A DNA stretch of 20,000 bases from Ionaspis alba (GCA_964255285.1 CAXUUL010000014.1:49403-69402), one strand, 5' to 3'. Shown: positions 1-20,000, numbered from the stretch's first letter. Notes: generated by a model not told the origin, from the letters alone. A program made the numbers and translations.

Positions 1-868
1 ATTTTAGATTTCCGGAGACCAAGTCAAGCTGATCGTAGGTGAGATCTCCATCCCACGCGTGTATAGCAGGCGCATCAGGGCGATTTTTGACGTGCCGGCT
101 GATTTCTCCGTGAACGGTGGACTCCACACTCTGTCGGATACCGCTGTTCCACGCAACAATTTGGTCAAGGTCGCGGCCGCTCAAGGACCGAACCTCACCA
201 ATCGTTTGTTTCGGGTTTTCCAATAGGCTCTGAAAGAGAGTGCGGCAGGTGTTGCCCACGTTGAGTATCGCCTCTTTGGTATAGTCGGAGCTTTTGAAGT
301 GGATCTCCAGTATCAATTTCCCCAACCAGTCATTGAAGACTGCTACAAGACCGTTGTGGTACATCTGGGGCAAGTTAGCAAATGGGTGAATGTCTATGGA
401 GGTTGATAATCTCACATGTCGGTGTTCATTCAGCATCTCTCTTTCCTCTGACTCTTTGTCACTACATAGACCTCGTGGCTTCGACTGAGTGTAGAGCATC
501 TTCGTGTTCAGCAGAGGAGTGGCTTCCCACAGGGTGCTGTCTACGACAGATGAAACATGTGCGTAACAAAATTCAACGCTTGAAACGGTCTGTGACTTGG
601 ATATTACTGCAGAGCAGACGTAGCCTGGTTGTGTGTGGAGTTCACCTTTGCTGGTATTGCCCTGTATGCGAAAAGCGACGGTCTCATTCCCTGTATAGAC
701 GCGAAGCACGAGAGCCCAGAGAAGCTCATACAAGTTCAATTGTCCTATGGCTTTCTGAAGTGTATCGAGCTTCGCTTTGTCATTGCAGAGTGAGAAAGTC
801 AATGCTTGAGCCTTACCCGCATGGGTAGTTATTGCATAATCGAGGGTGGGAAATAAACAAGGCTCCAT
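1..868 (-). CDS. Non-ribosomal peptide synthetase, 5' part (degenerate N-terminal C domain, then start of adenylation domain); continues beyond window start
   Basis: Absent from the ORF track because it has no stop in the window. Open frame from ATG 868 (in-frame upstream TAG at about 956-958): MEPCLFPTLDY...LYELLWALVLRVYTGNETVAF...SLLENPKQTIGEVRSLSGRDLDQIVAWNSG...VHGEISRHVKNRPDAPAIHAWDGDLTYDQLD. PCLFP and WALVLRxYTG are typical of fungal NRPS starter C-domain remnants. PDAPAIHAWDGDLTYxxL is the A1 region of fungal A domains. Probable 51-nt in-frame intron 365-415 (GTGAGA..GCTAAC..CAG). Confidence 0.93.
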   Translation of the reverse strand, partial: MEPCLFPTLDYAITTHAGKAQALTFSLCNDKAKLDTLQKAIGQLNLYELLWALVLRVYTGNETVAFRIQGNTSKGELHTQPGYVCSAVISKSQTVSSVEFCYAHVSSVVDSTLWEATPLLNTKMLYTQSKPRGLCSDKESEEREMLNEHRHVRLSTSIDIHPFANLPQMYHNGLVAVFNDWLGKLILEIHFKSSDYTKEAILNVGNTCRTLFQSLLENPKQTIGEVRSLSGRDLDQIVAWNSGIRQSVESTVHGEISRHVKNRPDAPAIHAWDGDLTYDQLDLVSGNLK

Positions 869-953
869 ATTCCACTGTAGAGAGACGAGGACGGCCCAAG
901 ATACGGAGCGAAAAGGACTGTGCAGGTGGGAGAAAATAGAATGATAACCTCTT

Positions 954-1253
954 GACTATATAGACAGCGCCAACAGGAATGAAACACAGGAATAAAACAC
1001 ATAGTTGTTTTGATACCGCCAACAACACCGATTCGCATAAGAAAAGCCCACCACAACGTTCAATTTCTATTTCCCGATACGTAAATAAATTATAGATTGA
1101 TACAGGTATTAACTGAAACTTAAGCCGCAAATTAAATCGACGTGCTCACTTTTTGGGCTTATTAGCGCTACCAGGCAATGGAAAAATAGCCTTTAGACTA
1201 TATGAACAGCGCCAATAGGGATCGAAACTGTAGTTGACTTAACACCACCGACA
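954..1253. repeat. Degenerate direct repeat upstream of the NRPS
   Basis: 954-980 GACTATATAGACAGCGCCAACAGGAAT vs 1196-1222 GACTATATGAACAGCGCCAATAGGGAT (23/27 identical). 1002-1024 TAGTTGTTTTGATACCGCCAACA vs 1231-1253 TAGTTGACTTAACACCACCGACA (17/23 identical). Confidence 0.75.
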
Positions 1254-2988
1254 GTGGGCGCCATTGGAGTGCAGAAACAGAAAAATAAGGTAATGGTTAG
1301 CCAGGCGTTTGAGGCATAGCACCATGGTTTCTTTAGGCGACTTGACACGACCGCGACAACCTGCGTCAAAGAAAAAGATCAGCCAGACTGCTTGTTGGGG
1401 AAATAAACTGCTCTTCAGAACCTAAACTTTTGTTACTGGACCTAGAATTAGGGCAAGGTTTCCATCCCACATTCTTTTTTTCTGCTTGTTCCTGAACCGG
1501 CACTAGCTTCTTGTCCTCCTGCAACGCTAAGCTTCATGTCAAGCTAAAGCGCCTTCGTATTGCGTCCAACATATACATGTACATGTACATTGCAGACTGT
1601 ACTCTGTATAAATACGCGTGATCCAATGCTCTATAAATCCTGGAAGGCGCATTGCATGAAGCGTTCTCCAAAAAAAGGAAAAGAGGGATCAAGTTGGAAG
1701 AGCCGATCGTTAAGAAGGAACCCACCTAGTTAAGGTACAGTACACTGTTGGGCATCTGGTCGGTTAATTGAGACCTCATCCAACTCCTTTCCCCACAGGC
1801 CCACCTCTTCTCGGTGTTTATGATGATGCATTCCCGAGGGATGTTGAGATACGAGCTTCGTTCAATAGTGGTGGCAGTAGTCTTAGGCCGCCCGGGCGCC
1901 TAACATAATCCAGGTTGTCCAAATCGACCCTCAACACGGTGGCCAGTCGATCTCACAAGAGAAGGGTCTCGATGCGTCAAGAGCAACAAAGGAGTGGTTC
2001 TTCTAGCTCGACATATTGGGCTGACCTCTGCCGGATGCCAATTTCTTGTCCAGTGGTGGTAGCTAGCATCGCCTTCATCAAGTACAAGGTGATGGTGATT
2101 TATGGGTATGACTGGCCTTCTCGATCCCACCGTTGAGCCTGATGAGATCCAATCTCGTGTTCGCTCGAATGGAAGGAAGGCCTGCAGGCTTGAGTTTCAG
2201 GTCTTCTCCACGCTTCATCATATGTACTGCATTGGTCGGTACCTTCACAGTGCGTATGTTCAAGGTCGTCACCCACCAGAGGAACACGTTCACATAGTCC
2301 AGGACGGATTCTTGTAGGGATCACTAGGCTATCTGGAAGCAGACAATCAATCGAGCGCGTTGTTTTGTTACTAATTTGACCAGGCTGTCCCAGTCTTTCC
2401 TTCTTCACTCACGAAACAGGTTGGTATTCTCAAAGACGAAAATCTGCTTCCTGTCCTTGTCACTACATGATCTCGTTCTGAAACCTCAGAGTCCAGAAAT
2501 GGCTGTCCATTCTCATTTGCTGGGCTGCCGGGGCTCGTTTATGGAAAGACTGGTTGGCCAGGAGTAGTTGGAGTGTCAACGGCGATGGTTGCTAGCGCTG
2601 GGGTGCAAGTTTTCAGACACAAAGGAAAGAGAACATTATCAGCAGGAACCGCTGGTGATGCGTGAGGTCTCTCTGTTGTTTTGGTGTTTGGCAAATGCGG
2701 CATGTTGGAATGATCAGTCTTAGGATTGGAAACAGTACACAACAGTGGGTGTCTAGCATCGTGTCAATAACTCGCCATTTCAGGCCACGCAATATAACAC
2801 TCCATACTTCATCTTGATATTTCTCGACACCACTTGCATTCCATATCTGTCGCAACGCATGAGGCTAGTATAACATATCATGTGCTCTAAACATCGCCGC
2901 AGGCTTGTTGTACTTGTGCTACAAGTAGTGATCCGCGTCGAATCTATAATATCAGGACCTGGGACAAGACGGAAGCTCTGCGGAGGAC

Positions 2989-4139
2989 TTATAGAGTTCC
3001 ATGCTCAACCAAATATCCGCCATCAACTGGGAGAATCACTCCGTTCAGGTACTGACAGCAGGCCACAAACACTACTGCGCTCGCCATATCCATGTGGGTC
3101 CCAACTCTCCCGCTGCTGATGTCTTTAACAGCCGGCCAAGACTCTTCGTCCAGTGTGCTCTTGCCATTCAAACTGGGCGTGCCAGCGGTTATCTCCGACG
3201 GAAATACTCCCGGTGCGATCGAGTTGACGCGGATGTGCAGCTTCATCCTTGCAATCTCCGTCGCAAGCATCTTGGTCACATGGATCGTCGCTGCCTTGGC
3301 CGCGTTGCTCGCAAAATGGTTGAGAGACGTTCTGATGAGGCCGTTGATGCTGCTGATGTTGATTACGCAGCTCTGGTAACCAGGGTGCTTGGGACTGCTG
3401 CCGCGGGCAAGGAGCGGGAGGAAGGCTGTTGTGACAAAGTAATGTGAGGCAGCGTTTGTGCGGTAGACATTTGTCCAGTCGTCAAAGGTGGCATTGGGAT
3501 GGTCGAAGAGATTCGCTCTTGCTTGGGACGCATCTTCGCCTTTGGGTTGCTGCGACGCGCTGTATATGCCCGCATTGTTTATCAAGAGATGTAGAGCCTC
3601 CTCTTTTGTTTCGACTTCATGAGCTAGGCGTCTGTGAAGAAGAACCTGTTAGATCGCTGTCCGAATTGCTGTAATGAGTAACAAACTGCCAAGGAAGCGT
3701 TTGTCTTCTTCTCCTGCCCCTTCTCCTTCGCCGCACCCTCTTACGTTCACCATCTCCACGACCAGCGCCTCGCGTCCTTTGACTGGGAAGTCGATCGTGA
3801 TAGACAAGACTTACTTGATGTCTTCCTTGTTAGCCACATCGCCCACGAGCGGAATGATCTCGCCCCTAATATTCTGGCTGTACACGTCCGCAGCCGTACG
3901 CAACTTGCTCTCTGTCCGCCCAACAATATAAACCTTTGCTCCATTGACTGCGAGAGCCTGTGCAGCCATCAATCCTATTCCAGTGGCCCCGCCCGTAACC
4001 AAAGCCACCTATGTGGAGGGTTAAACTCTATAACGCCGAAATTCTTCTGCTGGAAACACCATACCTTGTGCTCGACGTTGAAAAGAGAATACAGCTCGAA
4101 GTCTGCATTGTCTGTTGCCATGTTCTCTGAGGTGGCCAT
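2989..4139 (-). CDS. Short-chain dehydrogenase/reductase (classical SDR fold), about 303 aa, catalytic Tyr replaced by Ser
   Basis: Exons 4139-4065, 4008-3815 and 3631-2989, with GT-AG introns in consistent phase. Motifs: VALVTGGATGIG, VYIVGRT, LINNAG, VINISS, HFASNAAK (YxxxK position), RVNSIAPGVFPSE, VDGG. Alternative start at ATG 4121. Confidence 0.92.
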
Positions 4140-5447
4140 AGACGTCTCGTGCTGTCTTTCGATGTTGCTTTCTGAGTGTGGAAACAATTCAAAAGCTCAA
4201 GATATGCTCCGATAATACGGGAAGGACCTCTGCTTTATATAGTTGACCAGCATGGCCCAACCAGTAGGCCCGAAGGCGCTGAACCTAAGCCTGTTTTGAA
4301 GTTTCACCATCATGCAGAGTTGGCGTATCAGTTCATCTGGAAAGAAGACGCTCTTCGTTCAAACCGAAAGAACGCTTATGACTATGCTATTGACCATCAG
4401 TTTGGTTTCTAGCTGGATAAGCGGGGTTTTGATGTTTTCGTTTTCCCCCCCAACTAAATGTAGATTACTAGAAAAAAGAATAATGAGCTAAACCCGATGG
4501 AGATTAAGTCCTATGAACTCCAACGTCTTAGCAGCATCGACACAACCCTGATATGCTTCTACTGTTGCTCCGTCACTGAATCGTTGCAGTCCTGATGCAG
4601 TAAAAAGCAGACACTTTGGTTGTGGTTGTGAACCTTTAAGCGTGCAGCAAATGAGACGAGGTGCAAGGGAATAGCGGAGTTCAATCTCAAGGCCATCCTG
4701 CACAGGCTAGACGTCCACTAAGAGTATGCGGGCATGATGCAAAAGACTCCTTGCATTGAGCGGCTCACTTGAAGCAAAATGTCGTGCGGCTCGACTGCTC
4801 ACGTCTGAACTCGTTGTTTCCTAGGCAAACCGATTGTCTCTTACGGGGTCGCCGTCAACTATTACTATTCTTTCGTTTTGAAGGTGTAATCCAAATTCGC
4901 AAAGGAACCACTACTGGGTATATCTGGACACACTCACCACGATTCTCGTTGGCGCCACGGTGTAGTCCTACAACATGATCAGTAGAAGCTTTAAGGATAA
5001 GCTGGAGTCGCCCACTAAGCGATGGTAGACGTTTTGGACTGGCTGGGCCCGTCTCCATTAAAAGTTCCACATCTCTCGACGAACGATGCAAATGAAGAGA
5101 AACACTTGGAGGACCGGGAGAAGTAGGATGAGGTGGTAATAACGGATGAGAGGATTGGAGAGCCATACCACCTGAAGGCTTGCAAGGTAAGTGGATCTCA
5201 AGGCTTTCTGGAGTATGTTGCCTTCGATCTTCCGACTCATGGTGATTTCTGCCTTGCACAAGCGCGCTGAACGCATAATTGTGGGCATGGCTACTAGGTC
5301 GACCATATATGATAGTGTTTCAACAACTAGTATCAATTTCTTGCGACGCTGTGCAGTCTGTATCTATGCATTCCAGCGACGCTTATTCCGGCGATCGCCA
5401 ACCAAGAAAACCCACCTTTCTATCTCGGGCTTTTGTACTATGGGTCA

Positions 5448-6870
5448 CTAGACAGACGCTGCTTCAATAAGGGTCTCGCCTGCACGCGTGTCAGTGTGAA
5501 TCCAGCCATCTTTCTCCGAGACAGCTCACCTCCATCCGGAAAAAGTGTCTGGGCAGTATAGAATGTGCCACCCCTCCCAGCGAGGAAAAGAATTGTGGCT
5601 GCCATGTCAATCTCATGCCCGGCCCGGCCTGCAGCGTTGGTGATAGCTCTCGTCAATTTCGACTTTTGGTCGGGACCTGAGCCACCGGCGGTCATCTGAG
5701 AGCGATTGTAAGCGTGCCTGCCGTGATAGACTATTCTTATTGAGGCGGCTAGGGACTGGATGACAAACCTCGGATGGGAATGTTCCAGGTGCAATCATAT
5801 TGACCCGCACCTTTGTCTGAGAGAACAAGTGCGCCAACATGCGACTCAGGTGAACAAATGCTGGGCAAACATCAGCCTAGGAATCGTGTCTTATCTTTAT
5901 CTGGCGGATTTTCCAACACCTACCGGCTTTTGAAGCCCCGTAGCTGATGTGGCCCCGCGTGGTGTTCTTCAAGAAAGCCGAGTTGCTTGTGACGTTGACC
6001 ACGCTAGAGGTATAACCGGGTATAACGTCACATCCTTGTGCCAATAGCGGAAGAAAGCCGATTGACATGAAATATCCTCCCATACAATTCGTCGTGAAGT
6101 TCTGTTGCCAGCTGACGGGGTCTGACTTCCAGAAATGCTCGGAGATGGCCACCGGATCCTGGAAGTCGGGAGCCGGATTTCCTGCAAACTCGGTAGCGTA
6201 GTCTCTTGCAATACCCGCGTTGTTGACAAGAAGCTGGATGCCGTTTGGCTCTTCGCTTGAGACTTTGTCCACGAGTTTCTTGATCTCGTCCTTCTTGCTA
6301 ATATCAGTAACGATACTAGAACAACGTCGAAGTCAGCAGAAACGAGCTGGATGTCTCTTCCGGCCAAGGGATTTTCCTTGCAATCATGGGAGCCTTTACG
6401 GGATGATCTTGCCAGGGCCGGTGTTGTAAAGCTCCATCACTAAGCGCGGGTGTTAGGACAAAGTGTACAGACGAAAGATTGGTCCCGCATGCTCGGTCTC
6501 GTGCACTGAGATTGGAGCAGTCTAATAAGGATACTATTATACCTACCAACTTTCAGCGCCTCCTCACGAAGCTCAGCGACGTAGACCTTCGCCCCATTGG
6601 ATACCAATGCCTCGAAGTTCTAAGTCAGTCCATGCCCTTCCGAAGTCGAACTGTTCACAATCTCGTGGTGCTTCAAGTCTGTATTACCTGCGTGATCATC
6701 AACCCAATACCACCTGCGCATGGCCATTAGCCTTGCGTTTCTTCGCCTTTGCGATTAGCTCCACAAGATTACTAACTTCCACCTCCTGTAACAACGGCAA
6801 CGACGTGGGAAACGCAGAATATTTTTGAGCTCTGGAGGTCTACATTTGTTCCTGGCTTTGCGAATGCCAT
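5448..6870 (-). CDS. Short-chain dehydrogenase/reductase, about 301 aa, same subfamily as the neighbouring SDR
   Basis: Eight exons: 6870-6777, 6713-6688, 6610 (or 6619)-6547, 6439-6400, 6315-5924, 5860-5769, 5695-5530, 5479-5448. Motifs: VAVVTGGGSGIG, ALVSNGAKVYV, LLVNNAG, VVNVTS, SYGASK, RVNMIAPGTFPSE, FPDGG. Confidence 0.92.
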
Positions 6871-7250
6871 TGTCGCTAACTTGCGCTAACAACCGACAGA
6901 AGGTTCGGAGCAAGAATACCGTTGCTTTAGGTGCGTAGGTATTTGACTCAGCAATTGACTTCAGAGAGTTGAGGACGATATCTTATCGCAAGCAAATGAC
7001 TCCGAACACAATTTCGCGTTGGAAAAACTCCATGGGAAGCTGTCACTGCATTTGGGAGAAAAGCAAATGAGCCAACATCGACTTTTCAAGAATCAAAATG
7101 CTTTTGTTTTGCTGCTTTTCTGTACTATGAAAGAATGGAAATGATGAGTTAGTATACTTTTCGTCAAACATGCCGAACGCTTTTTGACCTTGAGATTGGG
7201 TTTCTGCTATCCTGATAGGTCGACCTGAGGGATCCGATCCCATAGCTGCA

Positions 7251-9069
7251 TCACGAGGCATGAACCTGGACTCGCGTAAATTGCACCCAGAGTGCGTCCT
7301 CGAGTGAGCCTGGAGAATGGCAGCCAAAAGTCTCGGTGCGGACCGGTTGCGCAGTGAAGTTCGAAAATATCAATGCCAAGATGTATCGCATTACTGGTAA
7401 ACGTTAGTCCCCTTCCTGTCGATCAGTATTTTGACGTGCGGCAACTGACGGTACTGAGACAGATTCGACCCCGCACACATCCTAGGGCCGCTGCAGAAAC
7501 CCCACATCTGGTTCTCGCCACTGCATTTAAGTAGCTTTCCATCGCTGTCCAGCCACCTCTCGGGTATCCACTCGTCCACCCGATCCCACTTCTTCGAATC
7601 CCTGTGCACAAACCACTGGAAAGCGTTGACGCGCACCCTTGGCGGGATACCCTCGATACCAGCGAGCCTGACAGACGAGTTTGCAGGGGTAATGCGTGGG
7701 AGAGGTGTGCTGTTGGGACGCATGCGGAGGGACTCGCAGATGATGGCCGAGAGGTATGGCAGCTCGTCTAGCGTTGCTGCAGAGGGTAGGTGCTGGTCGT
7801 GTAGATTGAAGGAGTCCGAGCTCGACAGGTGGTGCATTTCAGGAGCAGCGGAGGCGATCTCTTCGCGGAGCCGGTGTTGCGCTGTTGGCTTTTGGGAGAG
7901 GTAGTAGAGGGTGTAGGCAAGAACGAGACCTGCAGGATGTAAGACAGTGGAGCTGCCCAGCAGCCTGGCGATATACTAGCTTACCGAGGACTTCCCTGGA
8001 GGATGCTGTATATGTAGGCTCTTAGTGCCTCGAACGCTTTTCAAGAGATCAATACTTACACATGTGGTCGAATAGCTCGCTGGCAACCTCAATTTGTTTG
8101 GAATGGGCATCCAGGTGGCTGGAGTCTTGATCTGTAGCGCCTTTCACACGAGCATAGACGGTGGGAAAGTCTGCGGGGTTTTCTAGAGTCGATCTTTCGC
8201 CCCTCCGCATTGCAGTGTCCGCTGCCTCACACATGGCCATCATCCAAGACTCCATCCACTTCTTCGAAGTTGATGCACGTTTTGGGACTAAGCATACCCC
8301 GACCTTCTCAAGAGTTCTTGTAAGTCGTGGCAACTCCTGGGGCCAGAAGCTCTCCGCGCAGTATCGGTTCTCGTAATGCTCAAGGAATGACTTGATATCC
8401 TCTCCCTTCGTCAAGAATTTGGATCCATTGGACTGGCCGAAGAGGTAGGCGTTGACAAGATCAAGGCACATCGAGTAGCTGAGCTCGAGAAGCTCGGTCT
8501 GCTGGGATGTAAAGGCGTCATTTTCCATCCTCGGGACAAGGCCACCAAAGAGTATCGTCTCCGTGACGGCTGTAAGCTGGGGGGATGTAGAAAGGGCGGA
8601 CTTCGCATACACTGCAGCAATGCGTCGTCTGTGCGTGCTGTGACTTTCCCTGGTCAGGCTGCTAAAGGCATTCTCCATCCTACACCCAGCATCAGCAATG
8701 AAACCGAGCAAGTACGATGGATTCCATGACCTACCCATAGTAGTCAAAGAAGGAATACCACGGAGGCTTGTCAAAGCCTCCATGGTATACAGTCTTGATC
8801 CCATCTTCAAAGCAGCTTACGCTGATGTCTTGGGGTCCGAGCCTGACGATTGGTCCCAATCTTTCATGAGCTTGCCTAACGACATGTAACTCCAGTCTCC
8901 TGTAACGTGTGACAAGAATCCATAGAGAACTCAAGGGCGAGGACCAATGGGCGTTGGGTACCTTGGCCAATGGGGAGATGTGCAGAGGATATACAACGAA
9001 ATGGTAAAGCAAGGAAACACCAACCAATCCAGCCGCTAAGATCACTGCGTAAGAGCCTTGGAAACCCAT
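7251..9069 (-). CDS. Cytochrome P450 monooxygenase, about 532 aa
   Basis: Exons 9069-8735, 8679-8060, 8005-7985 (21-nt mini-exon), 7929-7450, 7393-7251. N-terminal TM anchor plus SPLAKVPNAHW, GPIVRLGP, ExxR (ESLR), PERW, and heme motif FCSGPRMCAG. Confidence 0.96.
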
Positions 9070-9973
9070 AACAATGATGAATCAACGGATGGGCTACAAC
9101 TGTAGAGGAACAAGGTTTTCGTTCAGAGAAAATTAAATCAGCCTACCGTCCGCTTGCCCCTTATGGTGCTTCCATCCAGGACCAAAGAGGGTATTCGCAC
9201 CTAAAATTTCCTGTCCAATATAGGCCATATTAGAATTAGGGCTTGAAGTACATACACCCCTGTGTTAGTCCCTTAGCTGCCATAAGGCACATATGTAAAT
9301 GCGATCTTGGCTAGCATGGGGAAGTTGAGAATGTACCCTGTAAACAACATATGTAGGCCATATCGGAACAAGAATCCTAGGTGTGACTACATAACCTATT
9401 ACACTGCTTCAGAGATGTCCTGTTGTTGAGCTGTGCAACTCCGATCTCGCTTACGATGTGAATATCAGGGACAATAGTTCGCGCAAGCGTCTAGCGCCGA
9501 TCACGATTTAGAGTTCTGACTGGGGCGTTCTGTTGTACTGTACAGTAATGAAAGTTACATGTAAACTACAAATCTGGTGTAAAGCCTTGGACTACGAAGG
9601 TGTCTTTCAACACTGCACCACACAGCTCCCCGGCATAAGATTCCTCGTAAGAGTACTACAGGGCTTTGACATAAGCGAGTGAGCTGGCGTGGGAGTATAC
9701 CAGTGCCCACTTTTTCTCCCAACATTTCAAGCGACATTTGCGGTGGAGGGGCGTTTATCCTCACCAGTCGTAGTCTACATGTATGCTACATTCCCTAATC
9801 AGCTTGGTATCAACCTACACCTGCAAGTTGCGAATCATATGACTAACGATTCGTCGATCGAGTGGTGATCAAGGCCACCATGGCATTCACATCTAGCCTA
9901 CAACTATCTCTGATATCCCCACGCAACAAAACATCTTGCCATTACACAAAACGAGTTACGAACAAGCCAAAGA
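9070..9973. promoter_or_regulatory. Divergent promoter region between the P450 and Sur2-like hydroxylase A
   Basis: Head-to-head gene arrangement. Contains the direct repeat TAGGCCATAT (9221-9230, 9354-9363) and TACATGTA palindromes (9556, 9776). No site is functionally proven. Confidence 0.55.
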
Positions 9974-11263
9974 ATGGCAGTCAACGCTACTTCCAGCTTC
10001 AAACCCTACACCTTACATCCGATGCCGCCTCTGGTTCCCGGGATATCGGATCTACATCTCGCTCTATTCGTCCCTATTGCCGTCCACTGGCTCACCTCGG
10101 GGTGCTTCGAAATTTGTGAGCGAACCGGCTGGCTGGGGCAATATCGGCTGCATACAACCGCGGAGGAGCTCACGAGGAATCGTGTTACACGGCTCGAATG
10201 CCTACGCGTGACGCTTCAATGTCAGGCAAGTCTATTCTTGTGGATTTGGCATTATGCAATACCTGATAAAATACAGGGCCTCCAGACACTCATGGGGCTT
10301 GCGCTAGGTATGCTTGGCGAGGGCGATGTCACGGGAAATGAGGACTACGATCTTGCTGTTTGGATCAGCAGAGTGCATGCTGTCTTTGCAGCACTCCCCA
10401 CACTACTCTACCTCACTGGCGTCGATTTTAAGAAAATGGCGATCACGCCATCTGGATTCGGGTCTTTCCTTCCTACGATAGGACACCCTGAACTTGACAT
10501 GCACAGCATCGAAGTATCGATAGGCACATTGCTGTACCGGTATATTGTACCAGTCTTCCAGCTTGCCTATGCACTGATTATCGCGGATGCCTGCATGTAC
10601 TGTCTTCATCGCCTAGGACATACGAACAAATGGATCTACAGTAAGTCCTGAGACCTCAACCAAAAGGTGTTCAGCACATTGACAAGTCCTAGAACATATA
10701 CACTCCCAACATCATAGGCTGTACGTCCCATATTCATGGGGTGGCTCGTACAATCATCCTGTCGATAGTTTATTCCTTGACGGTCTCAGCTATGGTATCG
10801 GCTGTGGGGTTTCTGGCTTGTCAAACAGGCTGTCTATTATACTTTTCGCCTACTCATCATTCAAGAACGTAACTGACCATTGTGGGTACCTGTTCCCGTG
10901 GAATCCGATCCGCTCGGTCACAGGGACTGATGCCGGCTTCCACGATGTCCATCACCAGAGTTGGGGCTTAAAGGCAAGCTCTCGTGCATCCCACCCAAGC
11001 TGTGAAGGCTAATTTCGACCAAGACAAACTTTGGAGCCCATTTGGCTCTCTGGGATCGTATGATGGGAACTTATTTTGCCGATGAAAAGCAAATTTCAAG
11101 GCTTCGTATGAAGAACCGTGTTGCAGCTCAAGACCTCGTATCCGCACAGGGCGTTAGCACGGACGCAGCGGACTTGGTTCTCCCTCAATGCGACGAGAAG
11201 GCTCTAGGCGGAGAAGGTGGCGGTGACTCAAAGGCTGTAATAACCAGGTCTTTCTTGTGCTGA
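9974..11263 (+). CDS. Sphingolipid C4-hydroxylase-like (Sur2/BasA family) membrane di-iron hydroxylase, paralog A, about 378 aa
   Basis: Exons 9974-10225, 10277-10640, 10693-10973, 11024-11263. Sur2-like N-terminus (YTLHPMPPLVPGISDLHLAL..QYRLHTTAEELTRNRVTR). His boxes HRLGH, HSQHH and HDVHH, plus RLYVPY, YNHP, DHCGY and WDR. Confidence 0.93.
10226..10276 (+). other. GC-AG intron (intron 1 of hydroxylase A)
   Basis: CAG|GCAAGT...CTGAT..ACAG|, 51 nt, in frame. Paralog B has a GT-AG intron at the same codon position (14518-14571). Confidence 0.75.
10974..11023 (+). other. GC-AG intron (intron 3 of hydroxylase A)
   Basis: AAG|GCAAGC...GCTAAT..CAAG|, 50 nt. Required to join WGLK to TNF..WDR. Paralog B has a GT-AG intron at the same position (13775-13826). 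Confidence 0.85.
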
Positions 11264-12090
11264 CGACGAATACCGAGTTGACAGTGGGACTATACCTAGC
11301 GGTCCGGTAAACGGAGACAGATGGCCTAAGTCTGCGCGTCAAATTGCAATCGGGTTTGCGATAGTGCATGGCCAAGTCCAGGCACGCCATGTTGATGTCT
11401 CATGCTATGTAGGTTAGTGATGAGTTCTCAAAAGTAACGCAGAAGGTTTTTTCACCACAGCGCTCACCCGTGATCTGAAAGAGCTCAGTCTAGTTCTAGC
11501 GTAAGAACATTCCAACTTGCAGGTGCGTCGTCTTTTGTTGGCTGTGGAGCATACATTTCACCATTGAGGTAATGTAATGTAGTAACGTGGTGCATGAGTA
11601 TTGGCGCTACTGCTAGTTGACGATTCGGCCAATAGGCATTAGCGTGCGAGGACAATGCTAGGTCATATCATGCTCAAAACGAGACCCCGGCTGCACTGAC
11701 ATGAAGCGGAGGTTGCGCCGATGGTGTCGAGGATATATATACTCTTGGACGTATCACCTGCATGGTCGCGAAGCACAGTACATCCTGAGGATGCAGCAGC
11801 ATGCGGAGGTGAGGAGATCGCGCAATTCCCGCATGATTTTAGTCAGGCGTGGACGGCTTGCGCGATTGAACTTGCCGACCTTGTCAAAAGCTGCGTTGCT
11901 TGTTATCCCGTGAACGTCAACTCATCCTCCCTCATACAATTTTCATGTCCAAGCACCGAGCGCCTATTGTTGTCATAGGGTAGCAAGGCCGACATATGCC
12001 GCCGCTGCACTCGGGATCGATACGAGGTAATCTAAATGCTAGTTTGAGCGTAGCCCAAGGTCTCAAACAGAATTTATTGCATCCCGAGGT

Positions 12091-13184
12091 TTAGGACTCA
12101 ACAGCTTCCTTCAACGACACTTCCAAACCAGTAAATCCTGGCCTGCCGTATCGCCGTAGTAGCTCCTGAGCTCTTTTTGTATCCACAATCTTCAAGTCCC
12201 TCGGTGCATCCTTGATCCTTTCGAATTGCCTACTGCCATCGCCGTAGCCTTCAGCGTCAATTTTCTCCATCAAAACCGCCGTGTCGTTGAAATTGAACGG
12301 GCCCGCGAAAGCCAAAAGCCTTTCCCCTATAACATCCTCTTCAAGTAAAGCCGCAATGTGTAACAGCGCTGTATCTGTCACATTGACGTAATGTTGAGGC
12401 GGGAAGTGATTCCTTAGAAGTTTGAGCGTCTCCGCATCCCCTTCCCACATCTTCTTGTACCAGCCCCCTGTCGACGCTGGCTGCTCCTTGGACAAAATCC
12501 TCCCAATGTTGCAATTTGGTAACACGGCATTGAGGACAAAAGCAGGTTTCTCTTCCTGCATAAAGCGCCAACACTCTTTTTCCGCTAGTGTTTTACTCGC
12601 CGCATATACGGCCAGCTTTCTGTCGTCGTTATAGGGCGGAGGTGCCCATGCGGCTTCAACGTCGGCGTCATTCCAGGAGGATACGTCAATATGGAACTTC
12701 TTGTTCGCTATCGGCGCGGTCGCTGCAGCGGATGAAGACGTGTAGACGAAGCGTTTGACGCTTGGGTTGCGCGCCGCTGCGGTGAGGGCGTTCTTAATTC
12801 CAGACAGCACCATTGGTAGCACTTTATGCGGGTCCGGATTCAGAGTGAGGTCGGAGGCAACGTGTATGACGCCTGCACAGCCTGTCGAGCCTCAGCATGA
12901 CAGTGGTGAGCAGTGCGCGTTTGGAGTACAATCTGACCTTTCATGACCTCGTCGAAGGCACCGCCCGTAGCCATGTCCTTAACGATCTGGACCTCGAACG
13001 CATCCTCGCCGTACTCCTCATCGAAGAGTGCGTGCATATAGTCGGCCTTGTAGGCATCGCGAACGGTACCACGAACACGGTAGCCGTGCTCAAGGAGCTG
13101 TTTGGCGATATGGCTGGCGATATACCCGTTCACGCCTGTGACAAGGACGAGGGATTCTTTGGGGATTGCTGGCATGGTCTTCAT
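12091..13184 (-). CDS. NAD(P)H-dependent carbonyl reductase, extended SDR (aldehyde reductase II/Gre2/Ari1-like), about 345 aa
   Basis: Exons 13184-12938 and 12881-12091. Motifs: VLVTGVNGYIASH, GYRVRGTVR, GVIHVASD, VKRFVYTSSSAA, VYAASK. Confidence 0.93.
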
Positions 13185-13612
13185 TATTAGCCTTGCAACC
13201 TTAGGCTTCTCGAAGGTTATAAGAGGGTTGAATATTGAGATATGTAGAAGTTACTCGAAAAGATTCTGGCCAGCATGACGAGGAAACCGTGACGCGGGTG
13301 TTTTCTGTGACGTAAACCGCAGCCGATTACATTTATAGTACGTGGTAATAAGTATCTACACAGGTCCGTACACGCCAAGGATTAACTAGGCCCACACTCT
13401 CCCCGTGCCAAGGCATCAGCCCTCCTGTCATGCAGGGGTTTTAAACCGGAACCGATTTTGCCTTTACAACGTTTTCGCTACATACTGCATGTTGAGTAGA
13501 CTATGAATGAGGAAGATGTGAGAGTTATTGCTAATACCCTATTGAACGGACAGTGGTGGAAAAGATGTCCGCAAGAGTTTCACGTGAGCATTACTCGCAC
13601 TGCCAATTGGGC

Positions 13613-14832
13613 TCAAGCCAATTTTTCACGGAGATTTGACTTCCTCCCCCTTTCCTTTCCAACCATCTCCGCTGCCTTGCGGTCCCGCGTATATAATCTA
13701 GATGCAGCTTCGGTGTCCGTGAACTCAGTCCCCAGAAGGCGATCCCAGAATCGGAAGTGAAGGGCAAAATTGTTCTGTAAGATATATTAGGAAGAAGGGT
13801 AGGAAGGGGATGAAAAGAGGAGTTACCTTGAAACCCCATCTCTGATGGTGTTTGTCGTGATAAGCAGCGTCGACTGAGGTAAAGAGATCCATTGGATTCC
13901 AAGGAAAGGTATATCCGCCGTGATCGGTACAAGCTTTTGCGGAGGAAAAGGCCGAGAATACCATACTTTCCCTCAATGTCATCCCGGAACCGATGACAGC
14001 AAACACAAAGGCTCCGACGCTGAGAAAAAGGCTCTCGATAGGGTCGTCATAGATTCCGCCCCAACTATAAGTCACGTTCAATCCATGATGACGGGCGTGA
14101 AAATGTTCTACACCATAGCATTGGTCAGTGATCTCTACAGACGTGATCTCACTTACTGTACAACCATTTGTTGCTGTGCTCTGCCCGATGAATGAAGAAG
14201 ACCCACGTATCCGCTAGCCATAGAGCCACGTAGAGTCGTAATGCAGGTATCAGTCCGTAGTAAATGAGTTTAGCCGCTAACAACTCCGCCTCTTGTTCCG
14301 CTCGACCTGACGCGAAGAAAGTTGTGACAGAGACGGAGCGGGAAACGGTAGCGATGAGCGCCTTAACGTTAAGGCCAGAAGATGACAGTAAAGTAAGAAT
14401 CGCTTGTCCAAGAACATGCACTCGACTTGCCCAGATCGTTATATCGCGGCCTTCGTTACCAATTGTCTCTACCTCGGAGAATGCTCCGAGTACGATTCCA
14501 AGACCGGTCTGTAAAATCTAAGGCTTGGAGATTAGGCCAGCTAAAGGCAATGGAAGCAAGTTATAACGTACCTGCACTAAAAGTACGCCACGGAGACACT
14601 CTGATCTGCTGATTGTGTTTTTCGCCGTTTCTTCTTCACTGGTATGAATTCTGTATTGTTGGAAAAACCCAAAATGCTGGAAAATCTCGTAAACGGCAGC
14701 AGTAAGCCAATGTGTGACGACAGGGACCAGTAGTGAAAGGCTGTAATCTGATATTCCTGAAATGAGTGGCGGTCTTGGACGTAAAACATCTTGAAAAGCC
14801 ATGGAGCCTTTTTCTACCATTGTCGATTCCAT
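13613..14832 (-). CDS. Sphingolipid C4-hydroxylase-like (Sur2/BasA family) di-iron hydroxylase, paralog B, about 354 aa
   Basis: Exons 14832-14572, 14517-14157, 14107-13827, 13774-13613. PRPPLISGISDYSLSL, QYRIHTSEEE, His boxes HRAEH, HARHH and HDKHH, DHGGY, FWDR. All three intron positions match paralog A, and exon 3 is 281 nt in both. Confidence 0.93.
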
Positions 14833-15428
14833 GATTGATCATTACCGGTCAAAGCGAATGCAAATATCAGGAAGGAAAACCATTTGGGCGATAAGTATCA
14901 CCACCTGGAGGAAGGGTGACAGAACAAACGCTGAAAAAACTACCCACGCCATTTCCGGCATGGCAGTCATTAGAAAAAGCAAGAAAAGCGGGGCAATTTA
15001 GGAACGAACAGTAGTGCCGCAATCATACATGTAAGTATATTATCATGCGTGACGATACTCGAACGAGACGCCACTACAATTATATCAAAATTCGAGCCGC
15101 GAGAAAAACTTTACAAATAATAGGTGCAGTTGCATAATGTACATACACACATTATGCACCGATTAACAGGATTTGTGGGGGCTAGCTTCGTTACGGAGGC
15201 TAGTAGCCGCGCTAACGCTCACTAGGATCTTGGAAATCGGTCCGTCCCGCTCCCTTCCGTCCTATTAGCTTCTATCCGCCATTTTGGCTCAGCGAGTCAA
15301 TTCCGCGCGGCTAGATACCCCTGTAGCAACCAAAAGCACTAATATATGTAAAGTACATGTATCCATGTATCACGGCTCACTCCGCACCACCGCATGACTG
15401 CCACTAGTGACATACTGCGTCCATGTAT

Positions 15429-15833
15429 CTAAGGCCTCGTACCATCCGACTCGACCGGCACCAATTCGCCGGGCATCCACCACACAATCGCAATTTTGCC
15501 CTCGCGGTACTGATAGAACATATGCTCCATGCACTTGACTGTCCCCTGTATGTTGCGTCCCATGAACTCGCGCAGAGGCGTGCATCGGAATTCAATCCTG
15601 CATCCCACCCGCTGCTTAGCCTCGTCCACGAGCAGCATTGATAGTTCAAAGCGGAGGTCTGGGGCCGCATCGATGTCGTCCGTGAGAAGCTTCTCGAAGT
15701 CGGCCAGGGGCATAGAAACATCGTTGAGGGTGACGATGGGGTGGATGTGGTCGCTCAGTCCAGGGAAAGGCCGCTTATTGATAGCAGCGACGTAGGAGAG
15801 GTAGGTTGATTCGAGGGAAGAGGACAGAGCCAT
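15429..15833 (-). CDS. SnoaL-like (NTF2-fold) polyketide/ester cyclase, 134 aa, intronless
   Basis: From ATG 15833: YLSYVAAINKR..HPIVTLND..IDAAPDLRF..LLVDEAKQRVGCRIEFRCTP..FMG..EHMFYQYREGKIAIVW. This matches the SnoaL/ester-cyclase pattern PDLxF..F.G..E..FY.f.dGKI..V. Confidence 0.88.
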   Translation of the reverse strand: MALSSSLESTYLSYVAAINKRPFPGLSDHIHPIVTLNDVSMPLADFEKLLTDDIDAAPDLRFELSMLLVDEAKQRVGCRIEFRCTPLREFMGRNIQGTVKCMEHMFYQYREGKIAIVWWMPGELVPVESDGTRP

Positions 15834-16230
15834 GCTGGGGATGCTGTCTTGTCTTTCGGAGGGGGTCTCTTGTTGTATCGCGAATGGAAGGTTGGACACT
15901 GGCTAGAATGGCTCGACAACCTGCTCTTCGAAGATATGGCGCTCGCGAAGCTAGAAAGTGGCAGGTAGTTCGCACTTAATCGACTTTCCTTCGCAGCCAT
16001 GTCTGGTTGAAAATGCGTGTGGGTTGAGGATCCCGAATGGCGCTGCAGCTAACAAAAGCAGATTTCGAATACGACAAGGCTTATGCCGCCAGTCGAAGGG
16101 TGCAGCACGAAGCGTCAAGTCGTGCTGCCGCTACCGAGTGTAAACAGCACTACCAAACACTGCAGTCTCACAATCACGGCGACTTGTCAAACCTCTCAAC
16201 CACATTCACCCCTCTGACCTCGAAGCCAGG
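15834..16230. promoter_or_regulatory. Short divergent promoter between the SnoaL-like gene and SDR3
   Basis: Head-to-head genes with start codons about 400 bp apart. Confidence 0.5.
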
Positions 16231-17282
16231 ATGTCCGTCCCATTCTCTATGCTCGGTGGCTTTCTCTACCGCCAGCTCCTCGTCACCCCTCCGGTACCTA
16301 GGACTCGATTTGACGGTAAAACCATCATTGTCACTGGCTCTAACGTTGGCCTCGGCCTCGAAGCTGCTCGTCACTTTGGTCGTCTTGGTGCCGCCCGCGT
16401 CATTCTCGCAGTCCGTGATCTTAAGAAGGGCGAGGCTGCGAAGCAGTCTATTGACCAGACCCTCAGCCGCTCTCCGTCTCCTGTTACCGTTTGGAAGCTT
16501 GACCTCTCTAGCTACGGTAGCGTCCAGGAATTCGCGGCGCGTGTCGACAAGGAGCTCGATCGCGTCGACGTGGTCTGCGAGAATGCGGGCATCGCGACTG
16601 GAATCTTCCGCCTCACCGAGAGGGATGAGAGTACCATCACTACTAATGTCGTTAGCACGTTCCTGCTCGCATTCTTGCTGCTACCCAAGCTAAAGGAAAC
16701 GGCACAACGTTTCAACACGCTCCCGACTCTCACTATCACTTCTAGCGAAGTTGTAAGTCATCGCCTCGGTTCCCTATCGGGGCCTCATCCCCTAGCCAGT
16801 CGCTAAAACGTTCTGTCGTACAGCACTCCTTCACGACCTTTCCGGAGCGGAACGAGCCAGACATCTTCGGTACGCTTTCCGATAGATCTAAAGCAAATAT
16901 GGCCGATCGTTACTACGTGAGCAAGCTGCTCGAAGTTTTTGGTGTCCGTGAGATGGCTTCGCGTACCGGCTCCTCTTACCCAGTCACAATCAACTGTCTT
17001 AACCCAGGCTTCTGCCATTCAGAGTTGGGAAGGGAGGCGGGGTGGTATTTGTATATCATGGGACTGCTGCTGGCGCGCTCGACGGAGGTTGGCAGCCGGA
17101 CAATCGTGGCGGCGGCAGAGGCCGGTCCGGGGACGCATGGAATGTATATGAGCGAGAGTTTGGTAACGGAGCCGAGCGAGTTCGTGAGGAGCGAGGAAGG
17201 CGCACGGGTGCAGAAGAAGATATGGGCGGAGTTGACGGCCAAACTGGAGAAAATTATGCCAGGTGTCACGGCCAATCTTTGA
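16231..17282 (+). CDS. Short-chain dehydrogenase/reductase, retinol-dehydrogenase/WWOX-like subfamily, about 326 aa
   Basis: Exons 16231-16752 and 16824-17282 (GTAAGT..CAG intron). Motifs: TIIVTGSNVGLG, VILAVRD, LDLSSY, CENAG, TSSEVH, RYYVSK, LNPGFCHSEL. Confidence 0.94.
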
Positions 17283-17512
17283 TAGACAACAACTATTCAT
17301 AATCATTGATACTTTTCCAGTGTGCTCACGCCTAGCGTCTGATGCACTGTACCGCTTCTGATACGTCGCAGGCCTTCTTCTTTACCTCACAATCGTAAGA
17401 CACTTATCTTCAGCTTTCAATTCACAAGAACAAGAACGCCTGCCAAAGACTTATGGCTGATAGGTGCAACTGCTAGAAATCAAGGCAAAGCACACGATGA
17501 ACCTGTGGCATC

Positions 17513-18896
17513 TCACAAGTGTGGCTCGATGACAGAGCCGTTGATAACAGTCTCAAGTAGTCCGTTTTCATGCTTCGCTTTGAGTTCTGAGGTTGCCACT
17601 AATGCCTCGGCCTGAGTTTGAAACCCGCAGAAGACCGCGATTGACTGCTGAAGTGTTAGTTACATTAGAAAAGCTCCGAAAAAATTTCACTCACGTCTTC
17701 AGTTTTGGCCTTTCCTCTCCCATTAGTCGTATAAGCTCGATAGAACTTGGCTTTGTCATTGATATAGCTCAGCCGCGTGGAACCTGCGGAGAGAGTTTTC
17801 GCAGTACCGTGGAATACGGAACGTGCTTCAAGGCTCTCTTGCGAATCTGTCATTGAAGACAACTCTTCCAACACCTCCCCAGGCAGGGTCATAGCATCGA
17901 CGCCAGCCATGCGGATAACCTCGTCGGTCGTCATGAAAGCGCACGACTTGACTTTGGTAGGGATCCCATGCTGTCTGTAGTATTGTTGGGCTTGTAGAAA
18001 GAGATCAAGGATCGGATCTGAATCGTGGTAGCTGCAATCATCAGCAAGGCATGATTGAGCCGGCAGAGCCCACGTACGACGTATCCAAGTGAGCACGAAG
18101 CTCGTAAGCGAAGGGTGAGATAGAGATACATCCTGCTTCGCCAGCCAAGACGACCTGCTCCATCGTGAAAAGAGTGGTTGCCAATGTCTTGATACCATCG
18201 GTCTTCAGTCTACTGCACGCTTGTAGACCGTCCCAAGTCGCTGGCACTTTCATGATGAGCCTAGACATGTTAAAATCTGGCTCCAAGACGCGACAGATTT
18301 TGTGGAAACCTGAAAAGCTGTCTGTTAGCAAAAGGTGACTCGGGAAAGGTTCACATGGACCAACGGTGGCCGGTTTCGAAGACTTTTTCGGTATCCCAGG
18401 CATACAACGGGTTACACATAACGTGGATCGATCCGGAAATCGATGGGACAATGCGGAGCGAAAGGCTAATCATCTATACCGCTATCAGCTGTGGAATACC
18501 TTAGGCTTATGTGAATGCACTACGTACAGCAATCTCTACGGCAAGCTCTTCGACAGAGACGCTCACATGCTGTCCTTGGAGCTGACGAGCGAGTGCCACA
18601 GATTCCTTCAGAAGAGCCGCATTCTGCGGGTTGCACAATTGACTATACGCCTCCCACTGGGCACCACCGTTAGTATTTTGTCAGTAACGTCAATCCAACT
18701 CACTCGCCTGATTGGAAGTACAGTCTGAAAACGGGCCAAGGTCCGTGGCGACTACAGAGTGATTAGCGTCGCAGACCGAATCTTTAATCTCTGTTTCACC
18801 TTTCAAGTCCAAGCAATCGAGATCAACCGAAGATTTCGAACGCAGATATGCCAAGAGATTGACCGGCGATGCCGGTGGCGAAGTACTGGAAACCAT
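17513..18896 (-). CDS. Transaldolase/fructose-6-phosphate aldolase family (class I aldolase fold), divergent, about 359 aa
   Basis: Seven exons: 18896-18800, 18751-18708, 18656-18528, 18473-18365, 18309-18078, 18031-17695, 17644 (or 17647)-17513. Motifs: VDLDCLD, DCTSNQ, IMKVPATWDG (Schiff-base Lys at 18248-18250), GIKTLATTLFTMEQ, AGCISISPF, AGVDAMTL. Confidence 0.9.
18657..18707 (-). other. GC-AG intron in the transaldolase-like gene
   Basis: AATCAG|GCGAGT...ACTAAC..CCCAG|TGG. Only the GC donor keeps frame (TSNQ-WEAYSQL). The GTGAGT donor 4 nt further in leads to a TAG within 5 codons. Confidence 0.75.
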
Positions 18897-19336
18897 AACA
18901 ATTACACTATTCAGTGTAGATGTGGAGTGAGGTTATGGGGATCCACCTGTTCTTGTATCAGAATCGAGAGGCTGGAAATTGGGGTGCAAAAGTACTCATT
19001 ATCATGAACAAAATGCGGACATGTAGGTGAAAGATTGTAGTATTATTACGGAGGCAGCTCGAGTCTATATCCGGCATGTGATAGCAGGGCGTCTGCAGAG
19101 GTGCATTGTTGTCGTGTCTTTCAAACAGCCGAGCAAGTCCATTCTTAAGAGTTTCCAATGTTTATGTTAGGTATTTCATGCACGCAATACAGCTCTGCAG
19201 GCAGTTTCGGCGAAGCGGTATCAGTGCGCATTAGCGTACAGTCCTCAACCGTGCGTTCTTCCACACCAATGCCATGACGTCCAGAATAAGTGCATATGGC
19301 CCGACGAACTCCTATGGTTCCCTTGGTCTCGTGACT

Positions 19337-19368
19337 TTGGGGACCTTCTTGGGGGCCTTCTTGGGGAC
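19337..19368. repeat. Short 12-bp tandem repeat (about 2.7 copies)
   Basis: TTGGGGACCTTC TTGGGGGCCTTC TTGGGGAC. Confidence 0.7.
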
Positions 19369-19425
19369 TGTCTGACGGCAAAGACGTAGCGAGATTTAGG
19401 CATGAAGAGACCATTTATACTAACT

Positions 19426-20000
19426 TTAATCATCTCCTAGACATCTTGAAGATCCTGTCTGCAAGAGAAGTTCCTCAAGCGTGGTGAAGTTAAGATTCTT
19501 GAAGAATTTGCATCGTTGGCGAATTGTCTTCTCGCGAGGGCATGCACCCGATCCTGTGATCATCATCTCCTCTACACTTGCTAGATAGAGCGCTTCCAAG
19601 TTCTCAGCTGTAGGAGGCAGTAGAGTATCGCGATCGATCTGCTCCTTTGACCTGTAAGTCTTCTCCATGGGTCGACCTGGACCAGGTATCAATTGAAAAC
19701 ATCATTGAAAGAACAAAGCTTCACGAACCGTAAAATTCCTCCATGACTCTCGCCATTTCGTTGAAGGTTGACCATTGACCAGTGACATAGGTTGTGCGCT
19801 CCTGAGAATGTAAGATGCCAGTCGTGAACGCTCTGGCCAGGAGAGTAACCAACCCACTCCGGCGCACTGAGTAGCATGATGAGCGCCTTTGCAATGTCCT
19901 GCGCACTTGTAAAGGATTGCACTTCATCACCAGTGCCTCTGATACATGCCCTCCATCCGTTTGGATCAATTGGAAATTCATCCGGGATTGAAGGCATGTA
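19426..20000 (-). CDS. NmrA-like / isoflavone-reductase-like oxidoreductase, 3' part (5' end outside window)
   Basis: Exons 20000-19854, 19801-19729 and 19676-19426 join to give ..FPIDPNGWRACIRGTGDEVQSFTSAQDIAKALIMLLSAPEWERTTYVTGQWSTFNEMARVMEEFYGRPMEKTYRS..FFKNLNFTTLEELL. This is the typical C-terminal half of atypical SDRs (GxGD..fTs..DiAka..W..tyv.G...T.nE). Confidence 0.8.

Follow-up and report, generated by a model that had tools for sequence, protein, structure and literature searches.

A candidate fungal biosynthetic gene cluster in Ionaspis alba with a predicted NRPS-like amino-acid reductase, a divergent transaldolase-fold protein and two Sur2-like oxygenases

A 20,000-nucleotide (nt) stretch of DNA from Ionaspis alba (GCA_964255285.1, CAXUUL010000014.1:49403-69402), here called the window, consists of 11 tightly packed, intron-bearing enzyme genes and nothing else recognisable. 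The source fungus is probably lichen-forming. The genes encode the N-terminus of an NRPS-like enzyme (one resembling a non-ribosomal peptide synthetase), four reductases of the short-chain dehydrogenase/reductase (SDR) type, an NmrA/isoflavone-reductase-like protein, a cytochrome P450, two FA_hydroxylase (Sur2-like) di-iron enzymes (FAH1 and FAH2), a SnoaL protein and a transaldolase-fold (TAL-fold) protein. With about even confidence, we read the window as a conserved, uncharacterised fungal specialised-metabolite cluster whose core is a reductase with adenylation (A), thiolation (T) and reductase (R) domains, and propose a route for it. That the genes form a real, co-functional cluster is likely, and its product is probably a small molecule. 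Judged from its sequence, this appears to be a fungal cluster built around an NRPS-like enzyme, with accessory genes in a combination that has no precedent.

Over 100% of their length (blastp), the 289 window-encoded residues of the NRPS-like enzyme share 59, 47 and 45% identity with three A-T-R proteins of 1,225-1,918 amino acids from metagenome-assembled genomes of Teloschistaceae, and everything past residue 289 is inferred from these orthologues. P0001 (1,251 amino acids) and P0003 (1,225 amino acids) each contain one AMP-binding, one PP-binding and one NAD_binding_4/thioester reductase domain, and P0002, from Gallowayella, is a fused model in which an amino-acid permease is followed by an SDR and then by the A-T-R enzyme. 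The A-T-R architecture is present in all three (TIGR01733, PF00550, TIGR01746/PF07993), with P0001 scoring 361 bits against TIGR01733 (cut-off 317) and 218 bits against TIGR01746 (cut-off 213). Each has a single AMP-binding and a single PP-binding domain, not the two or more modules of a canonical NRPS. On this predicted architecture, the core enzyme is very probably a single-module NRPS-like amino-acid (carboxylate) reductase and not a peptide synthetase. Two other identities were considered and rejected: L-aminoadipate reductase (Lys2), for which P0001 reaches 297 bits against a TIGR03443 cut-off of 1030, and a glycine-betaine reductase, the second SDR-type reductase domain being absent from P0001 and P0003.

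The portion of the NRPS-like gene that lies in the window comprises the remnant of a condensation-domain C-terminal lobe and the start of the A domain, the remainder lying to the left of base 1. Residues 4-288 align to residues 897-1186 of P0004, in which the Pfam Condensation domain spans 706-1136; the remnant makes up the N-terminal ~235 residues of the enzyme, and only the C-terminal half of a condensation domain aligns. No HHxxxD motif occurs in the 289 residues or in the first 300 residues of P0001 and P0003, and PF00668 (Condensation) has no match in the window piece, P0001, P0002 or P0003. The condensation remnant is predicted to be dead. In the A domain, the Asp of the FDV(S/A)TVD motif, presumably the position that binds the alpha-amino group, is kept in both orthologues that cover the region (the third model is gapped there), and the nearest solved relatives are amino-acid-activating A domains. 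An initial annotation of the window, made from the sequence alone, had proposed that an NRPS loads or joins a lipid or an unusual amino acid. This proposal is at odds with the orthologues, which consist of a condensation remnant followed by A, T and R domains, have no HHxxxDG motif and carry an amino-acid-type A domain. More likely, the enzyme opens the pathway by converting an amino acid into an aldehyde.

The TAL-fold protein has departed from the enzymes whose fold it shares. Its model shares 61-76% identity with TAL-like proteins annotated as "transaldolases" in Ophiocordyceps, Hirsutella, Cercospora and Ustilaginoidea, and the group reaches only ~79 bits against the yeast and E. coli transaldolases. 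Like the classical transaldolases and fructose-6-phosphate aldolases (TalB, yeast Tal1/Nqm1, FSA), it has the TAL_FSA fold and the Schiff-base Lys, which is matched in alignment by the IKLAST/IKIAST-motif Lys of 4RZ5 and 3CQ0; in alignments to the same structures the equivalents of Thr156, Ser176 and Phe178 are also kept. Unlike those enzymes, it lacks the catalytic Glu and the phosphate-binding residues. In the homologue P0054, with which the window model shares its local sequence at these sites, the equivalent of Glu96 is Met and those of Arg181, Ser226 and Arg228 are Glu, Ala and Met; in E. coli TalB numbering, we take Glu96 to be catalytic and the other three to bind phosphate. Of the aldolase named in the initial annotation, the fold and the Schiff-base Lys stand, and the sugar-phosphate site and catalytic Glu are lost. 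We predict that the TAL-fold protein is a class-I (Schiff-base) enzyme that has been neofunctionalised and probably neither binds nor acts on sugar phosphates any more. A housekeeping transaldolase was rejected on the loss of the catalytic Glu and the three phosphate-site residues and on a TIGR00874 score of 95 bits, far under the cut-off of 396. In the ESM Atlas, the TAL-like protein finds only generic 'transaldolase' clusters. A transaldolase, LmbR, reportedly takes part in lincosamide octose formation. Of the homologues' locus tags, UV8b_06058 alone turned up in the full-text literature; in the available text of PMC12028740 it is merely listed among rapamycin-down-regulated carbohydrate-metabolism genes.

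Both FAH models carry PF04116 and the three His boxes (HX3H, HX2HH and HX2HH) by which membership of the FA_hydroxylase family was judged. The boxes are intact, reading HRLGH, HSQHH and HDVHH in FAH1 and HRAEH, HARHH and HDKHH in FAH2. These features are shared with the Sur2/FA_hydroxylase superfamily, the Sur2-type label itself coming from automatic names of homologues; unlike Sur2, the window has two diverged paralogues inside a cluster. FAH1 and FAH2 are 42.7% identical to one another and are old paralogues, each with its own orthologues. FAH1 is 59-79% identical to the full-length homologues P0010, P0011, P0015, P0024 and P0227 and 81% identical, over half of the query, to P0018, and the FAH part of P0215 is 68.5% identical to FAH2 and only 44.8% to FAH1. 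Neither FAH protein has a solved relative, and the best NCBIfam match is weak (OlsE, 34 bits). Metagenome contigs gave no syntenic locus: one FAH alignment (A1) was too diverse, and a closer one (A2) returned 12 metagenome loci, all at ≤58% identity over short stretches and with the best long matches at 28-36%, none of them usable for synteny. Two of the three FAH1 introns are of the GC-AG type (10226-10276 and 10974-11023, with donors GCAAGT and GCAAGC); the first, of 51 nt, is in frame and stop-free, the unspliced open reading frame (ORF) reads through it, and homologues lack those 17 residues. In metagenome-assembled genomes of Seirophora, an ApoO (MICOS) domain is joined to the members of the FAH1 cluster (P0228, P0229) or takes their place; this suggests that a truncated FAH1 adjoins a housekeeping gene, and the cluster may be decaying in that genus.

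The initial annotation also raised a long-chain or sphingoid-like unit. In a lipid pathway of this kind, a fatty or polyketide chain from a polyketide synthase (PKS) or fatty-acid synthase (FAS) outside the window, or from sphingolipid metabolism, would be hydroxylated by the Sur2-like pair and the P450 and keto-reduced by SDRs, and the NRPS-like enzyme would process it, for instance through acyl or amino-acyl carboxylate reduction. Such a pathway would account for two FA_hydroxylase-family enzymes with all three His boxes intact, and it agrees with the automatic (JGI) name 'sphinganine C4-monooxygenase', which four of the five members listed in P0018's 90%-identity cluster bear. The P450 model, read by eye, opens with a hydrophobic stretch consistent with an anchor in the endoplasmic reticulum membrane, and the chain-building gene may sit in the flanks beyond the window. 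We nevertheless consider a lipid pathway unlikely. The window contains no PKS, FAS, pyridoxal-phosphate (PLP)-dependent oxoamine synthase or acyl-CoA ligase. The orthologues' A domain has the score of an amino-acid-activating one and retains the presumed alpha-amino-binding Asp, and the conserved trio of TAL-fold, NmrA and SnoaL genes would be left unexplained. The precedent of SphC, which the initial annotation had cited as a Sur2-type enzyme, is also doubtful: the available text of PMC10936153 describes it as a cytosolic C-4 monooxygenase and names no family, a poor fit to an integral-membrane Sur2-type enzyme. As to the other two precedents cited, the family of VlmA is not named in the available text of PMC9860836, and the full-text literature searches did not find Ahd1.

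Parts of the gene set recur in other fungi, where co-location was judged by proxy, from locus tags, the order of accessions, the size of contigs and gene models that are fused. Gene order in Ikaeria, Teloschistes and Gallowayella is as in the window. In Ikaeria, FAH1 (Q9222_003528) and the NRPS-like gene (Q9222_003532) are both recorded on a 30,665-bp contig, and their four-tag spacing matches the window order FAH1-P450-SDR2-SDR1-NRPS-like. In the Gallowayella model P0002, SDR1 is directly upstream of the NRPS-like gene and the amino-acid permease adjoins, and Teloschistes exilis has an 885-residue fused model (P0215) that matches the SnoaL, FAH2 and extended SDR genes colinearly. In Cercospora beticola, SnoaL (WPA95410) and TAL (WPA95413) are both recorded on a 6.19-Mb contig, and in C. 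berteroae SnoaL (CBER1_06131) is accompanied, one tag further on, by a fusion of TAL and NmrA (CBER1_06133), each half of which matches its counterpart in the window. Ustilaginoidea virens carries TAL as UVI_02051000 and an FAH as UVI_02051020, in a TAL-x-FAH arrangement. The C. berteroae fusion (P0223, 624 amino acids) has TAL first, and in the window the NmrA-like gene is upstream of TAL on the same strand; the opposite order indicates that adjacency has been kept and the order locally inverted. The SnoaL orthologue group is tiny, with only 3 of 1.84 billion cluster representatives at E≤1e-30, after which identity falls to 36%, and its members are always seen beside TAL-fold or FAH genes; the window protein is 69.7% identical to C. 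beticola CB0940_00009. The grouping is more than chance: its rare paralogues adjoin one another in other fungal classes too. The single co-located cluster proposed initially is upheld by this conserved neighbourhood. TAL-fold and FAH1 proteins retain 59-79% identity across Lecanoromycetes, Sordariomycetes and Dothideomycetes, which, as far as sequence comparison goes, could reflect housekeeping-like conservation or horizontal transfer.

In the route we propose, the A domain would first activate an alpha-amino acid, and the R domain would then set it free as an amino aldehyde. The Lys of the TAL-fold protein could then join the amino aldehyde to a non-phosphorylated carbonyl partner, or rearrange it, making a C-C bond. 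The SnoaL-fold protein may aid cyclisation or dehydration, the five NAD(P)H reductases would reduce keto or imine groups, and the P450 and the two Sur2-like di-iron enzymes would between them introduce as many as three oxygens. What results would be a poly-hydroxylated amine in reduced form, either an amino-polyol or an N-heterocycle. This specific passage from amino aldehyde to reduced poly-hydroxylated amine is tentative, and we would sooner expect it to be wrong than right in its particulars. A more far-reaching version, which we regard as distinctly improbable, is that the recruited TAL-fold enzyme acts as a Schiff-base C-C catalyst on the amino aldehyde to give an amino-polyol or iminosugar-like scaffold, which the two Sur2-type enzymes would then hydroxylate as a non-sphingolipid substrate, in a pathway common to lichen fungi and insect and plant pathogens and as conserved in sequence as housekeeping genes are. 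Chemists use an aldolase route to make iminosugars, and a TAL-fold route would be its natural counterpart.

Several points weigh against this account of the window. The alpha-amino-binding role that we assign to the A-domain Asp comes from a code read by hand, and, with the catalytic Glu lost, the TAL-fold protein could be no aldolase at all. Sur2-type membrane di-iron enzymes usually act on lipids, which fits the long-chain idea better, and the immediate flanks may contain a PKS, FAS, transcription factor or transporter. In two Ophiocordyceps species the TAL and FAH genes share one contig at 17 and 28 tags apart; these pairs (CP532_3030/3047 and L249_3182/3154) would mean a much larger locus or a dispersed module. 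No RNA run is among the listed sequencing runs that contain the stretch (X1-X3). Eight upstream regions contain no shared promoter motif beyond chance: the best 7-mer occurs in five of the eight (50 shuffles gave a mean maximum of 4.4 and a highest value of 6), and CGG-Nx-CCG sites, in four of the eight, give no signal. Finally, close NRPS-like orthologues were found only in Teloschistaceae (three of nine matches) and none in Cercospora, Ophiocordyceps or Ustilaginoidea, in a search that used only the fast-evolving N-terminal 289 residues within a restricted length band and is weak evidence on absence. The widely conserved module may work without the NRPS-like enzyme.

This last point leads to the possibility of two neighbouring units, one pathway formed by the TAL-fold, NmrA, SDR3, SnoaL, FAH1/2 and extended SDR genes and a separate NRPS-like plus SDR1 unit that is adjacent to it only in Teloschistaceae, with the permease added in Gallowayella. 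Besides the restriction of NRPS-like orthologues to that family, the recurrence of TAL, SnoaL, NmrA and FAH neighbours in Cercospora and Ustilaginoidea would be expected under such a division, as would the disparity in conservation, TAL being 61-76% and FAH1 59-79% identical across classes and the NRPS-like N-terminus only 45-59% within one family; a 2.1-kb gene-free gap (869-2988) also separates the NRPS-like gene from SDR1. We think a division into two units improbable on the whole. In Ikaeria the tags agree with the complete FAH1-to-NRPS-like order of the window, and in sequencing run X3 all 20 kb remain colinear in a copy of the stretch that has ~90% identity across each of the 30 bins. 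With a divergent N-terminal 289-residue query and a restricted length band, the search may have overlooked orthologues in other fungi, and the Cercospora and Ustilaginoidea neighbourhoods as read here cover only two to three genes.

The genes might also share no pathway, being a chance run of oxidoreductases or a catabolic or detoxification island, as the lack of a listed RNA run, of a shared promoter motif and of any regulator or transporter in the window would allow. This we judge very improbable. In three fungal classes the rare paralogues have remained adjacent, among them the SnoaL protein with its three close representatives, a thioester-reductase NRPS-like enzyme is an anabolic hallmark, and the TAL-fold protein is clearly neofunctionalised.

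The inventory of the window (Table 1) was built as follows. The DNA is eukaryotic with many short introns; stop-to-stop ORFs were taken with the standard code and the pieces scanned against Pfam, which gave matches in 12 of 22 and none in the remaining 10. The leftmost (NRPS, piece 2-955) and rightmost genes had no Pfam match and were assigned through relatives. Spliced gene models were built by script, guided by homologues where possible, and searches used single exons or database homologues. All 11 consecutive enzyme genes of the initial annotation are present by Pfam and relatives. Its headline tally of two hydroxylases, an aldolase, a SnoaL protein, five Rossmann-fold reductases and an NRPS correctly accounts for ten of these and omits the eleventh, the P450. 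In the intergenic gaps, none of 88 ORFs of at least 45 amino acids matches Pfam at E≤0.01, which leaves the window with no detectable transcription factor, transporter or housekeeping gene, in agreement with the initial reading.

Table 1. Genes of the 20,000-nt window, with spliced models and the matching pieces of the Pfam scan.
Gene	Length	Introns	Position	Strand	Pfam scan piece	Score or remark
NRPS-like	first 289 aa		1..868	-		starts at 868, runs off the left end
SDR1, classical SDR	303 aa	2	2989..4139	-	adh_short / adh_short_C2, 2989-3648	adh_short_C2, 72 bits
SDR2, classical SDR	~300-346 aa		5438..6870	-	adh_short / adh_short_C2, 5877-6332	adh_short, 44 bits
Cytochrome P450	532 aa	4	7251..9069	-	p450, 7391-7975	PF00067, 84.5 bits
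FAH1	378 aa	3	9974..11263	+	FA_hydroxylase, 10683-11012	PF04116, 42.8 bits (cut-off 31)
Extended SDR	345 aa	1	12091..13184	-	Epimerase / NAD_binding_4, 12091-13250	Epimerase, NAD_binding_4
FAH2	354 aa	3	13613..14832	-	FA_hydroxylase, 13725-14213	PF04116, 34.9 bits (cut-off 31)
SnoaL-like (NTF2-fold)	134 aa	single exon	15429..15833	-	SnoaL, 15429-15902	PF07366, 44.8 bits (cut-off 28.4)
SDR3, classical SDR	326 aa	1	16231..17282	+	adh_short / adh_short_C2, 16144-16806	adh_short, 64.6 bits
TAL-fold (TAL_FSA)	at least 325 aa	5-6	~17570..18896	-	TAL_FSA, pieces within 17665-18469	PF00923 in two exons; 3' end approximate
NmrA/isoflavone-reductase-like	C-terminal ~155 aa		19429..20000	-		tblastn; 5' end past the right edge

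The remaining enzymes are mainly reductases. SDR1 is 84.5% identical over 278 amino acids to the SDR part of the Gallowayella model P0002. In SDR2 the TGGGSGIG motif is restored only by splicing, and an internal junction is ambiguous between ~6441 and 6315; the GIG of the TGxxxGIG cofactor motif lies on a 26-nt micro-exon (6713-6688), for which splice signals are the only basis of prediction. The extended SDR scores 161 bits against Sporobolomyces aldehyde reductase II (1UJM), placing it with aldehyde/keto-reductases, and is 68.8% identical to the C-terminal part of the T. exilis fused model P0215. SDR3 is a generic SDR that resembles retinol dehydrogenase and protochlorophyllide reductase in its PDB matches. 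At the right edge, tblastn aligns 19441-20000 at 47-63% identity with residues 467-618 of C. berteroae P0223, the NAD(P)-binding half of which matches NAD_binding_10 and has the isoflavone reductase homolog A622 as its nearest solved relative (31 bits). The P450 model contains the heme-Cys motif F-x-x-G-x-R-x-C-x-G and the ExxR motif, and the usual I-helix AGxxT motif is not evident in it; a 21-nt micro-exon (8005-7985) is likewise predicted from splice signals only. The SnoaL protein scores above the PF07366 cut-off of the SnoaL polyketide cyclase family, with 3EHC as its best solved relative (56 bits); unlike the situation of SnoaL polyketide cyclases, there is no PKS in the window.

The gene models can be compared with copies of the stretch in sequencing runs, all of which (X1-X3) belong to one study and are not independent support. 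Each of the 12 indels listed for X3 (1513, 8011, five at 11264-11280, 16769, 16782, 17357, 18342 and 19344; there are 59 further indels) falls in a predicted intron or between genes. The 1-nt deletion at 8011 lies inside the predicted P450 intron 8059-8006, and the indels at 16769 and 16782 lie inside the predicted SDR3 intron 16753-16823. X3 also differs by one replacement and two deletions (191 and 265 nt) at 2767-2935, 4536-4728 and 4797-5063, the first on the NRPS-like side of SDR1 and the other two on its SDR2 side, all of them gene-free. Their confinement to the gaps around SDR1 supports these gaps as non-coding. Run X2 contains a low-depth copy that is ~99% identical, and a Logan contig of run X1 extends 3,973 nt past the left end of the window. 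A plasmid collection gave no match to the window.

Fungal clusters with a reductase-terminated NRPS-like (A-T-R) enzyme include the herquline (hql) and the lna/lnb piperazine clusters. The likeness to the window lies in a single A-T-R core enzyme that presumably releases an amino aldehyde, accompanied by SDRs and a P450. The window enzyme is predicted to have a dead condensation-domain remnant at its N-terminus, which the hql and lna/lnb enzymes are not known to have. Nor are a TAL-fold protein without a phosphate site, two Sur2-like di-iron enzymes or a SnoaL protein known from the hql or lna/lnb clusters. Sphingofungin- and fumonisin-type clusters are alike by analogy, keto-reductases and hydroxylases tailoring an amino-polyol in both. 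Unlike them, the window shows neither a PKS nor a PLP aminotransferase, on which the sph pathway is built (PMC10936153, available text). Searches of the full-text literature gave no cluster with this gene set, and the initial annotation had likewise matched it to no described cluster.

Uncharacterised fungal clusters are common, and one more would by itself be of moderate interest. Here a reductive NRPS-like enzyme is combined with a TAL-fold protein of shifted substrate class and two Sur2-like membrane oxygenases, a set for which no described counterpart was found. The unusual conservation of the non-NRPS genes across fungal classes, together with their adjacency, indicates a product that is widespread and strongly constrained. 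Among the carriers are pathogens of crops and of insects (Cercospora, Ustilaginoidea and Ophiocordyceps), and the presence of the same module in culturable relatives offers a tractable route into lichen-fungus chemistry. If the aldol hypothesis is true, the cluster would represent a new C-C bond-forming logic in fungal alkaloid or amino-polyol biosynthesis.

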